From assembly GCF_003334305.1 (NCBI RefSeq), contig NZ_QOWS01000005.1: a stretch of 64,000 bases of DNA; one strand, 5' to 3'. The translations under genes and the position numbers were made by a program. Positions 5,407 to 13,944 of the stretch are shown piece by piece. Under the pieces are notes generated by a model. It was not told where the DNA came from, made no database searches, and saw nothing but the letters and a program-made list of their open reading frames with translations. This stretch comes from Escherichia coli (lineage in GTDB: Bacteria > Pseudomonadota > Gammaproteobacteria > Enterobacterales > Enterobacteriaceae). Positions within the stretch are counted from its first letter, which is position 1, and every line of letters begins with the position of its first letter.

Positions 5407-6012
5407 TTACTTTAAGCCTTCCGCTGACAGCGCGTCTTGTACTTCCGGACGTTCAGCCATACGTTGCATAAATGCTGCAATGTGCTCTAACCCTTCCAGA
5501 TTCAGTTTCACCGCGTATGCCCAGCGCAGAACCGTAAACAGATAGGCATCAGCAATTGTAAATCTTTGCCCGCAGATCCAGTGCTCATCCTTCAGTGCCT
5601 CGTTCACATATTGCAGCTTCTTCTCCAGCTGCGCGCGAACTGTCGGTTTGTACTCTTCCGGTGTATCAGGGCGAAACAGAGGTGTGAAACCTTTATGCAG
5701 CTCGGTGGCGATGTAATTCAGCCATTCGATGGTTTTATAGCGGGAAATACTGTTTACCGGTGCCAGCAACTGGCGGTCGGGGACGCTGTCGGCAAGATAC
5801 TGCATAATCGCTACGCCTTCCGTCAGCAAAGTACCGTCATCCAGCAGCAATGCAGGCACCTGCCCCTTAGGGTTAACGGCAAAGTAATCGTCACCGTTTT
5901 CGAGACGTTTTTTCATTAAATCCACACTGACGAGGGTAAAATCCTTTCCGCTCTCACGCAGGGTGATATGGGAAGCGAGAGAGCAGGCACCCGGTTTGTA
6001 GAACAATTTCAT
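5407..6012 (-). CDS. gstA: glutathione S-transferase
   Basis: 201-aa ORF recognised as GstA; convergent with pdxY. Confidence 0.9.
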
Positions 6013-6117: not shown

Positions 6118-7620
6118 TTACGCTACAGCAGCTTTCGCCGCTTTGTCTGCAGCGTCATCCTGCGTCATACGGTGCAGTTTAGGCGCGGTCAGCAGCATCA
6201 GTACTGCAATAATGGCAGTAGCGACACCAATCTGCAAGAATACGCGACCATAAACTTCCAGTGACATCAGCGGGTCGGTAACGTTATCCGGCACAGCCAT
6301 CATACCCGCAACATAACCACCAATCAGGTTTGCACCGGCAGTGGTCAGGAACCAGCTACCCATAATGAAGCCCATCAGACGCTGCGGAACGAGTTGTGCA
6401 ACCATTGCCAGACCCAGACCAGAGATCATCAGTTCCCCGATGCTCTGCAGGCCATAGCTTGCGACCAGCCAGCTTACAGACACGATACCAGCGTCAGACG
6501 CGAATTTCGCACCCAGCGGCAGAATCAGGAACGCACCAGAACACATCACCATGCCGATTGCAAACTTGGTTGGCATCGGCAGGGTATCGCCCATCTTGTT
6601 ATAGATAGCGGCCAGAATCGGACTACCGATGATGATCCAGAACGGGTTCAGTGCCTGATACTGCTCAGGTTCTACGGCCAGACCCAGAATGGAGTGCTCA
6701 ACGTTACGAATCGCAAAGAAGTTCAGTGACGTTGGCATCTGGCTGTACAGCACGAAGAAGATAATGGCTTCGAGCATCAGGATGAAGGCAACGATCATTT
6801 TACGACGCGCAGCACCTTTCATCGCGAAGGCTTCTTTACCGAAGATAACCACGATACCGAAGGCAACAACGCCCAGCGCCATACGCGCAACTTCCTGATT
6901 GTGCAGCAGCCAGGTGGCGATAGCGATCAGTGCCACAACACCAATAATGGTCAGCAGCAGGTTACGGTAGTTGATAGGCTCGAAGTCTGGTTTTGAACCG
7001 TACTGTTTAACCCAGCGTTGGCAGAAGGCGAAGTTAACGATAGTGATCAGCAGGCCTACAACGCTCAACGCAAACGCAACACTCCAGCCGTATTTCGCGG
7101 CCAGCCACGGCGTAGCAATCATAGAGAAGAAAGAGCCGATGTTGACGGACATGTAGTACATGGTGAATGCACCGTCCAGACGCGGGTCGTTTTTCTCATA
7201 GCATGTAGAAAGCAGAGAAGACGGGTTAGCTTTAAACAGGCCGTTACCGACCGCAATAGCCGCCATACCCATATAAACGATACCGGCGTCGTGACCAGAC
7301 CAGGCAACCAGAGCATAACCAATCGCCAGCACAATAGCGCCGAGCATAATTACGCGTTTAGTACCCAGTACCTTGTCACCTAACCAGCCGCCGATAGCGA
7401 CCAGACCATAAACCAGGGCACTAAAGGAAGAGAAAAGGGTGATTGAATCCGCTTCAGACATACCCAGTTGTTTAACCAGGTAAACAGCCATAATTCCTTG
7501 TAGGCCGTAATAACCAAAACGTTCCCATAACTCAATCGAGAAGATGAGATAGAACGCCTTCGGTTGTTTGAAAGCGTTCAAACTGACGCTTTCAGTTGGT
7601 TTTTGGTTTGCAGTGGACAC
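6118..7620 (-). CDS. dtpA: dipeptide/tripeptide:H+ symporter (POT family)
   Basis: 500-aa polytopic membrane ORF recognised as DtpA (TppB/YdgR). Confidence 0.9.
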
Positions 7621-8204
7621 TTTTACCTCTTTTTTTACATCCCATATTAACGGGGGTGCTTTCTCGCGTTATGTCTAAAAAACATACGCGCAATTGTTAT
7701 AGTGGGAGGGGAAACGGCAGGTAATGTTCACTATCTTGCACTTTCAGACAAGTCCTTTGTAATAATCTGTTACATATAACTGAGGCGGGGAATTCAACCA
7801 TTCCGGGAAATGTTATCCAGCGTTAAATTTTTCAAAAAACGTAACGGCAGATTTTTTCACTGCACTGAGAGGGGGGTGATGGCTTAACGGCGATATGTTC
7901 TGCTATTTAGCGTTTTTACTAGTGAGATAGTCCAGTTTCTGAAAAATAGCCAGTGTAATGTTTTGTAGGTCAATATTTGTTGCGTGTGTAAATTTAAATG
8001 ATTTTAACCTGATTCTTGCAATGTTTTTACATTGCGACAGCATCGTGATCTTGATCACGAATGAATAGAAAATTTCGCTATTAAAAAAACAATTAACCTG
8101 CATTTTTGGTTATCTGCAAACGGATTACCTGATGATAACGCTAAGCAATGGCATCATTCACGTTAAAAAGATGTTTTAAAAGAGGATAAAGAAAGGTTAT
8201 CAAT

Positions 8205-8228
8205 GGGGTAATCGGTGTTACCCCTTTT
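8205..8228. terminator. hairpin just downstream of nth (end of rsx-nth operon)
   Basis: ggggtaa-tcggtg-ttacccc; the T-run lies on the plus side. Confidence 0.5.
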
Positions 8229-8230
8229 CT

Positions 8231-8866
8231 TCAGATGTCAACTTTCTCTTTGTATTCACAAAGATCTTCAATAATACAAGAGCCACAGCGGGGCTTGCGG
8301 GCAATGCAGGTATAACGCCCGTGCAGGATCAACCAATGGTGGCAGTCGACTTTAAACTCTGCCGGAACCACTTTCAGTAGCTTTTCTTCTACCTGTTCGA
8401 CGTTTTTCCCCGGCGCAAATTGAGTACGATTACAAACGCGGAAAATGTGCGTGTCGACAGCAATAGTCGGCCAGCCGAATGCAGTGTTTAATACGACGTT
8501 GGCTGTTTTACGACCTACGCCGGGCAGGGCTTCAAGCGCAGCACGATCTTCCGGAACCTCGCCATTATGCTGCTCCAGCAAGATACGGCAGGTTTTGATG
8601 ATATTTTCTGCTTTGCTGTTATAAAGCCCAATCGTTTTGATATAGGTTTTCACCCCTTCAACGCCCAGTTCAAGCATCGCTGCAGGCGTATTCGCCACCG
8701 GGTAGAGTTTCGCCGTCGCCTTATTAACACTGACATCGGTCGCCTGAGCGGAAAGCAGTACGGCAATCAGCAATTCAAAAGGCGAACTGAAATTAAGCTC
8801 GGTGGTGGGATGAGGATTGTTCTCACGCAGGCGAGTGAGGATCTCCAGGCGTTTTGCTTTGTTCAT
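8231..8866 (-). CDS. nth: endonuclease III
   Basis: 211-aa ORF; C-terminal 4Fe-4S Cys cluster (CxxxxxxCxxCxxxxxC); last gene of the rsx operon. Confidence 0.9.
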   Translation of the reverse strand: MNKAKRLEILTRLRENNPHPTTELNFSSPFELLIAVLLSAQATDVSVNKATAKLYPVANTPAAMLELGVEGVKTYIKTIGLYNSKAENIIKTCRILLEQHNGEVPEDRAALEALPGVGRKTANVVLNTAFGWPTIAVDTHIFRVCNRTQFAPGKNVEQVEEKLLKVVPAEFKVDCHHWLILHGRYTCIARKPRCGSCIIEDLCEYKEKVDI

Positions 8867-9561
8867 CAGACATTCCCTGTTTCACCGTTTGGCAATGCAC
8901 GTTCGGCAGTTGCTTCAGCACGGCGCTTTTTCATTCTTTCATCAATCAGGTATTTTCCTGCCAGCATCAGTCCCAGGCCAATAAATGCACCTGGAGGCAG
9001 CATCGCCAGCAGGAAAGGGGAGTCGGTGTGGAAAATTTCCACGCGTAATACTTTTGCCCAGCTACCTAACAGCGCATCTGCACCGTCAAACAATGTGCCA
9101 TTGCCGATAATTTCGCGTAGTGAACCCAGCACGAACATGGCGCAGGTTGCGCCCATACCAATTGAAAAGCCGTCCAGTGCCGAAAGCGCCGGACCTTTTT
9201 TGGCGGCGAAGGCTTCAGCGCGGCCCACAACGATACAGTTAGTGACAATCAGCGGAATAAAAATCCCTAATGATTGATACAGGCCAAAGGCGTAGGCGTT
9301 GATCAGCATCTGTACAGCGCTGACCACCGAGGCGATGATCATCACGTAAATGGGAATGCGGATCTCGGCTGGCGTCCAGTGACGCAGCGTCGAAATGGTC
9401 AGGTTGGTCAGCGTCAGTACCAGCGTAGTCGCAAGTCCTAAACCCAGAGCGTTAGTGGCAGTGGACGTGACCGCCAACAGAGGACAAAGGCCGAGCAACT
9501 GGACCAGCGCAGAGTTGTTTTTCCACACCCCCTGAACAATAACGTCTTTAATTTCGCTCAC
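8866..9561 (-). CDS. rsxE: Rnf-type ion-translocating oxidoreductase subunit E
   Basis: 231-aa membrane ORF; 1-nt overlap with nth start. Confidence 0.9.

Positions 9562-11247: not shown

Positions 11248-13944
<2,697 letters not shown>

Follow-up and report, generated by a model that had tools for sequence, protein, structure and literature searches.

The closest described system is the OmpR-dependent tppB/dtpA promoter of E. coli and Salmonella, in which OmpR sits just upstream of a weak -35 element; it is the same locus as the one analyzed here. The activity of a dtpA fusion spanning -201 to +15 is strongly cut without OmpR, according to passages of PMC5175337 and PMC5438342 that cite Goh, Siino and Igo (2004). 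As far as these passages describe it, the published tppB/dtpA promoter work covers about 200 bp upstream of the gene (-201 to +15) and includes neither the distal conserved blocks, nor the CRP site at -335, nor the leader structure reported below. YdcI (by ChIP-exo) and GadX have also been reported to act at dtpA, and an A-to-T change adjoining the dtpA -10 element raises the mRNA about 23-fold and sweeps repeatedly in long-term stationary cultures. The other known arrangements with which we compare the locus are the transporter leaders targeted by GcvB and Hfq (dppA, oppA and others), the intrinsic terminators found at operon ends, and the class I and class II CRP promoters. We analyzed the spacer between nth and dtpA within a stretch of 64,000 nucleotides of E. 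coli DNA (hereafter the window). At its core, this region is made up of the known and ordinary OmpR-dependent promoter of dtpA together with the end of the rsx-nth operon. To this our analysis adds a conserved two-hairpin dtpA leader and a distal CRP module, both of which are ordinary in kind. Overall, we think it likely that the nth-dtpA gap is an ordinary, densely packed control region of dtpA, with an end-of-operon hairpin of nth at its far end.

The window carries the K-12 rsx-nth-dtpA-gstA region in reverse complement and matches K-12 MG1655 collinearly, with an identity of about 99%; coordinates were converted as K-12 = 1720389 minus the window coordinate. The open reading frames of GstA (5407-6012), DtpA (6118-7620, with the start codon GTG at 7620) and Nth (8231-8866, with the stop codon TGA at 8233-8231) all lie on the minus strand, as do those of RsxE, RsxG and RsxD near the gap. 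The gap between nth and dtpA (7621-8230) measures 610 bp and has the same length in K-12 (1712159-1712768). A preliminary description of this DNA had called the gap the largest in the window, rich in A/T tracts and devoid of a credible open reading frame, and each of these points agrees with what we found. Specifically, in the K-12 equivalent of the 64 kb it is the largest annotated intergenic gap, followed by pntA-ydgH with 523 bp. Its GC content of 0.369 (window, 0.504) is the minimum among all 1268 windows of 610 nt, and it holds 11 runs of at least five A or T, compared to 2.7 +/- 1.5 in shuffled sequences (0 out of 1000 shuffles had as many). Spacer open reading frames of at least 25 amino acids remain intact, start codon included, in at most 9 of 44 orthologous spacers, and the longest of them (66 amino acids) in 0 out of 44. 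The spacer itself is present in 5424 out of 5426 complete E. coli genomes at 95-100% identity. Among the E. coli records listed, no annotated feature underlies it, and an Rfam search of positions 7000-9000 at a permissive threshold returned only chance-level matches.

The transcription start of dtpA lies at 7716 on the minus strand (K-12 1712673, forward). This position is taken from the SMRT-Cappable-seq supplement, in which b1634 (dtpA) is transcribed alone and 1712673 is the sole dtpA start reported, and it is also implied by the distance of -46.5 given in the OmpR table. In that table the OmpR ChIP-exo peak at dtpA spans 1710621-1710680 in old K-12 coordinates, is centred -46.5 from the dtpA start and is scored as activation (Seo et al., 2017, supplement). 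In the window, the OmpR-bound region corresponds to 7733-7792 on the minus strand and is highly conserved across 45 species. The peak centre plus 46.5 equals 1710697, which is 1712673 minus 1976, and 1976 is what we take to be the shift between the two K-12 coordinate versions. Since this shift reproduces 1712673, the two independent sources, OmpR ChIP-exo and SMRT-Cappable-seq, describe one and the same start, and both the start and the -46.5 distance at our locus agree with the published tables. The gap had previously been read as the promoter and regulatory region of dtpA, with a search for regulator binding proposed as a check. The mapped start at 7716 and the binding of regulators support this reading, as there is an OmpR ChIP-exo peak at 7733-7792 and CRP genomic SELEX lists tppB.

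From a reading of the sequence together with a position-matrix scan, we place the dtpA core promoter at 7723-7751 on the minus strand, with TTGTCT (7751-7746) as the -35 element, a 17-bp spacer, and AACATT (7728-7723) as the -10 element. In the scan, this pair of hexamers predicts a start at 7716, the same as the published one, with a modest score. The weak -10 element and the modest score are consistent with an activator-dependent sigma-70 promoter at dtpA, and we propose that an OmpR-activated sigma-70 promoter would drive dtpA from 7716. A candidate promoter with TATAAC at 7701-7696, which would give a leader of 68 nt, was rejected because the published start is at 7716.

With the start at 7716, the dtpA 5' leader is 96 nt long (7621-7716, minus strand), and not 610 bp as the preliminary description had it. 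Conservation of the spacer peaks at 7780-7621 in the 45 Enterobacterales spacers. The leader is conserved across the 45 species and is 79-98% identical to the closest relatives compared (Escherichia and Citrobacter). We found two stem-loops in it. The first, SL1 (7665-7690, leader positions 27-52), consists of nine pairs with a one-base bulge and is retrieved by covariation, by RNAalifold and by alignment-free folds. The second, SL2 (7641-7654, leader positions 63-76), pairs CCCGU with AUGGG and is recognized by covariation; it lies just upstream of a run of seven A and the Shine-Dalgarno sequence GAGG (7626-7636), which are invariant. All three elements are on the minus strand.

The pairing in both stem-loops is maintained while the sequence changes. 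In SL1, changes on both sides occur in nine out of nine pairs and 91.8% of the cells are paired; in SL2, double changes occur in three out of five pairs and 96.2% of the cells are paired, with arms such as CCCGUC/GACGGG, CCUG/CAGG and CUCG/CGAG in Serratia, Pantoea and Pectobacterium. A covariance model built from seven gap-free Escherichia and Citrobacter leaders with the two-hairpin structure matched once per locus, just upstream of dtpA, at 45 loci. In the resulting alignment, 12 out of 14 leader pairs show double changes and 93.4% of the cells form standard pairs, compared to 30-42% when the 3' partners are slid by one to three columns. The leader covariation score of 0.523 was reached in none of 500 shuffles (0.207 +/- 0.016), and RNAalifold predicted the same pairs from this alignment. 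An alignment fitted to a covariance model leans towards the structure in its pair counts, and this bias is offset by alignment-free single folds of 52 distinct orthologues, each of which shows the same two leader hairpins, with variable sequence between fixed anchors (median dG -17.2, median z -2.4, with 90% below -1.5). Together, these observations indicate that the dtpA leader is a conserved cis-acting 5' UTR RNA structure, the pairs of which are kept by compensatory changes in about 50 Enterobacterales. In the E. coli fold, GAGG additionally pairs with CCUC (7709-7706) near the 5' end of the leader; both sequences are invariant, so covariation is uninformative on this pairing. We found no match to the leader structure in Rfam and no description of a two-hairpin dtpA leader in the searchable literature.

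We propose that the two stem-loops, which precede an A-rich tract and the Shine-Dalgarno sequence, would act with Hfq and GcvB in setting how stable the mRNA is or how well it is translated. The dtpA leader resembles the GcvB- and Hfq-targeted leaders of dppA, oppA and other transporter genes in being a short hairpin leader with an A-rich tract by the Shine-Dalgarno sequence, and in having GcvB chimeras, since GcvB-tppB chimeras have been reported by RIL-seq. It differs from these leaders in matching no Rfam family and in the location of its best predicted pairing with GcvB R1, which is not in the leader. This partner is the C/A-rich CACUGCAAACCAAAAACCAAC at 7595-7614 (minus strand), in dtpA codons 2-9 and thus outside both leader and gap, where window-by-window duplex prediction gave -24.2 kcal/mol for a 30-nt window; the duplex energy for GcvB over its whole length was no better than that of shuffles. 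The predicted site in codons 2-9 fits the RIL-seq chimeras. The conserved SL1 and SL2 make post-transcriptional control accessible to testing in a peptide transporter for which promoter mutations recur when cultures starve. We also observed an upstream open reading frame of 12 codons (7647-7685, minus strand), with its AUG inside SL1 and its stop codon in the SL2 loop. Its frame is intact in 10 out of 44 species, and the Citrobacter version also has 12 codons. The AUG/CAU pair of SL1 itself is strongly conserved. At 7568-7595, within the dtpA codons and antisense to the start of the coding sequence, the plus strand has a terminator-like hairpin of 11 pairs, followed by TTGGTTTTTG.

At the opposite end of the gap, six nucleotides past the nth stop codon, the stem-loop GGGGTAAT-CGGT-GTTACCCC (plus-strand reading) occupies 8205-8224, on the minus strand with respect to the nth operon. 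It has eight pairs, four of them G-C, and a predicted dG of -11.3 kcal/mol on the plus strand and -10.5 kcal/mol on the minus strand. On the plus strand it is followed by the T-run TTTTCTTC (8225-8232; six T out of eight), which is complementary to the spacer AGAAAA and to two bases of the nth stop codon. The hairpin and its plus-strand T-run had been pointed out in the preliminary description, and both are present as described. As a single structure the hairpin is not significant (z = -0.8 in a 51-nt context), and a tail with at least five T in eight has, by our own calculation, a chance expectation of about 10% at the composition of the spacer; what exceeds chance is the position of the hairpin. 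In 39 of the 45 Enterobacterales, a stable stem-loop (dG <= -8) lies no more than 50 nt from the nth stop codon, with unrelated sequences. Moreover, the first 45 nt past the stop codon have a median dG of -13.7, compared to -5.1 for the remaining windows of these spacers, and in 27 out of 45 species no other 45-nt window in the spacer is as stable. Because the position is conserved and the sequences are unrelated, it is the structure, and not the sequence, that is maintained at the end of nth.

SMRT-Cappable-seq reports operon variants from 1705206 and 1705743 that end with nth (b1633), with dtpA having its own start. From these variants and the conserved position of the hairpin, we infer that the ydgK-rsxABCDGE-nth operon has its 3' hairpin or terminator in the stem-loop at 8205-8224, and that this stem-loop would serve the nth strand in E. 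coli. Like the intrinsic terminators at operon ends, it is a G+C-rich stem-loop right after the last stop codon, and in many genera the nth strand has a T-rich tail (at least four T out of eight in 21 of the 45 species, at least five in 10). The E. coli element departs from this pattern, since it has a weak tail on its own strand and a canonical one on the opposite strand, and it lacks the pairing of an A-tract with a U-tract expected of a bidirectional terminator. Specifically, the nth-sense tail ATTGATAA contains three T out of eight, and as RNA (AUUGAUAA) it is a poor U-tract with three U out of eight, which makes efficient intrinsic termination of nth at this hairpin doubtful. The tail on the plus side, UUUUCUUC, is canonical, and stem and U-tract on that side are those of an intrinsic terminator. 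An A-rich stretch upstream of the hairpin (at least five A in eight), which reads as a T-run on the plus strand, was seen in 3 of the 45 species, namely the window, L002 and, as an inner-helix artefact, L030. A terminator scan retrieved a plus-oriented tail also in L003 (E. albertii), and it retrieved elements with two sides in two other genera (L008 and L045); these two aside, the plus-side T tail appears to be specific to Escherichia. The earlier suggestion of an rsx-nth terminator acting in both directions therefore stands only in part: the hairpin belongs to the end of the operon, as its presence in 39 out of 45 species indicates, but only its plus side is T-rich (6/8 versus 3/8). We propose that the stem-loop six bases past the nth stop codon would end or stabilize the ydgK-rsx-nth transcript, and we regard the T-rich tail on the opposite strand in Escherichia as probably incidental. 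That the same terminator hairpin can carry a T-run on either side across genera calls for caution in assigning strands from a T-run alone.

Between this hairpin and the dtpA promoter, conservation across the 45 species is patchy but strong, with blocks at 8097-8045, 7960-7888, 7862-7845 and 7835-7810. The first of these includes a CRP-type site, cGTGATCTTGATCACg (8044-8059, no strand assigned), which we recognized by the conservation of its half-sites and the centre of which (8051.5) lies at -335.5 from the dtpA start. It reads cGTGA-TCTTGA-TCACg, so both core pentamers match the consensus TGTGA-N6-TCACA in four out of five positions. GTGA-N6-TCAC is kept in 30 out of 45 species and the central 6 bp vary; conserved half-sites around a varying centre are the signature of a CRP site, and we regard this predicted site as near-consensus. 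In CRP genomic SELEX, tppB is listed as a new target, in a portion of the report's text that gives no coordinates. At a fixed spacing from the CRP site there is a conserved block (8063-8100, no strand assigned), which on the plus strand consists of ATAGAAAWTT, 7 variable bp, a run of seven A, and YRATTAACCTG. No sigma-70 arrangement of -10 and -35 elements fits this block on either strand. On the plus strand, the position expected for a class II -10 element falls on the variable part of the block, and with TAACCT (8093-8098), the sole conserved -10-like hexamer, CRP would come to lie near -54.5. The minus strand shows no -10 element that is consistent across species. By-eye comparison of the block with the consensus sequences of IHF, Lrp, ArcA, PhoP, CytR, GalR, ArgR, FliA and sigma-32/54/E gave only partial matches, none of which we claim. 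We also rejected GGTTAATCG-T7 (8098-8083, nth sense) as the real nth terminator, as no consistent hairpin precedes it (median z = 0.04). A 7-bp dyad, GCAATGT-TTTT-ACATTGC (8018-8035), adjoins the CRP site; it was rejected as a conserved structure, since other genera have different dyads or none.

Further towards dtpA, the block at 7888-7960 is 81-86% identical even to Citrobacter and presumably binds a regulator. Two further conserved blocks, within 7810-7862, include AACGCTGGATAACA; none of these blocks has an assigned strand. In the dtpA sense, AACGCTGGATAACA (7811-7824) and AACGCTAAATAGCA (7901-7914) form a direct repeat (repeat family D3) 90 bp apart, with both copies in conserved blocks, and they may be paired regulator-binding sites. 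The segment 7961-8040 is the least conserved and fastest-evolving part of the spacer, at 45-55% identity and only 53-55% even between Escherichia lineages, compared to more than 80% in its flanks. Together, about 450 bp of AT-rich DNA would serve as upstream regulatory DNA for dtpA, much of it in conserved blocks that include the CRP site at -335.5 and the block beside it. The CRP site resembles those of class I and class II CRP promoters in its four-out-of-five core pentamers and in the pattern of half-site conservation. It differs from them in lying 335 bp from the sole mapped start, with no conserved -10 element at the required distances on either strand; class I and class II activation does not usually reach over such a distance. 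Because the conserved module lies this far upstream, part of the control of dtpA may escape fusions ending at -201.

Several other readings of the distal gap deserve to be weighed against that of an upstream regulatory region ending in an operon hairpin. Peptide uptake genes are commonly under CRP control, and the CRP site could drive a second, upstream dtpA promoter, yielding a transcript with a long leader of about 270-400 nt under carbon limitation. Downstream of the CRP site, the minus strand does carry -10-like hexamers, such as TAAAAT at 8006 and TAAATT at 7996, and CRP binding to the tppB spacer is reported by genomic SELEX. However, these hexamers would place CRP at about -57 and -67, off the activating face, and they score below the shuffle median; moreover, no part of the spacer is less conserved than 8040-7961 (45-55% identical), and SMRT-Cappable-seq gives only 1712673 for dtpA. 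We consider such a promoter quite improbable. On the opposite strand, the near-consensus CRP site lies 150-190 bp upstream of the canonical plus-strand terminator, which could point to a CRP-controlled small RNA of about 115-190 nt. It would run from about 8040-8105 to the hairpin and U-tract at 8205-8232, lie in part antisense to nth at the 3' end of that gene, and have been acquired in Escherichia. TATTAA at 8079-8084 in E. coli would set CRP near -40, and the plus-strand sequence downstream, AACGATTAACCTG, is conserved, as is often the case at the 5' ends of small RNAs. If true, a carbon-responsive small RNA would have escaped annotation at a locus under study for decades, yet we judge this very unlikely. 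The supposed -10 element falls where the block varies, what is conserved in the block matches no arrangement of -10 and -35 elements, and the block is conserved in about 30 species, most of which are without the plus-strand terminator. The would-be body (8101-8198) is 82-83% identical within Escherichia and 47-56% identical to Citrobacter, which is about the level of third codon positions (43-66% in nth and dtpA), and short open reading frames within it are not conserved. No feature is annotated there among the E. coli records listed. An Hfq-type small RNA gene is not supported here: the promoter is unsupported, the terminator is not co-conserved with the block, and there is no Rfam match.

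The plus-strand T-run could also be explained without a dedicated RNA, if the hairpin were a true two-way element in Escherichia, acting on the plus strand as an insulator that stops stray or antisense transcription from the AT-rich spacer before it reaches nth. AT-rich spacers are a known origin of spurious promoters, the plus strand has the canonical stem and UUUUCUUC, the arrangement of hairpin and T-run is kept in three Escherichia lineages, and the versions in L008 and L045 are two-sided, with A- and T-runs on both sides. Against this, the T-run consists of only six spacer bases plus the stop codon, with the chance expectation of about 10% given above, and it is shared by descent in one genus and absent from most other genera. 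In addition, no plus-strand promoter scores above shuffled sequence. A consensus promoter scan of the spacer found nothing, and the position-matrix scan found no promoter above shuffles on either strand, with a best plus-strand score of 7.5 compared to a shuffle median of 8.7. We therefore hold the insulator to be unlikely, if somewhat plausible. No plus-strand gene or conserved open reading frame was found that would form a transcription unit ended by the hairpin, and the part of the Adams 2021 Term-seq supplement that was covered has no entry for 17121xx-17124xx. A separate RNA on the opposite strand of the gap is thus not supported. The short plus-strand transcript that the preliminary description had considered likewise finds no backing, given a promoter signal no better than chance and a T-run that is not conserved outside Escherichia. 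We therefore retain the reading of the gap as a dtpA control region bounded by the 3' hairpin of the nth operon.

The spacer is not uniform across the family. In eight loci from Kosakonia, Phytobacter, Pantoea and one Pectobacterium (L009, L012, L049, L063, L065, L066, L079 and L041), it measures 1.1-3.4 kb compared to about 600 bp elsewhere, which implies that something was inserted. Where the spacer is enlarged, as in Kosakonia, Pantoea and others, the CRP block is not kept in the same form and is lost or altered. In one locus labelled E. coli (L002), segments of the spacer are 53-96% identical to those of the window and third codon positions of nth are 68% identical; this is probably a divergent Escherichia lineage. 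Outside the gap, rsxC contains internal tandem-like repeats at 11297-11718, which give multiple offset BLAST matches to K-12 at 88-92% identity and thus indicate that this repeat region is variable.
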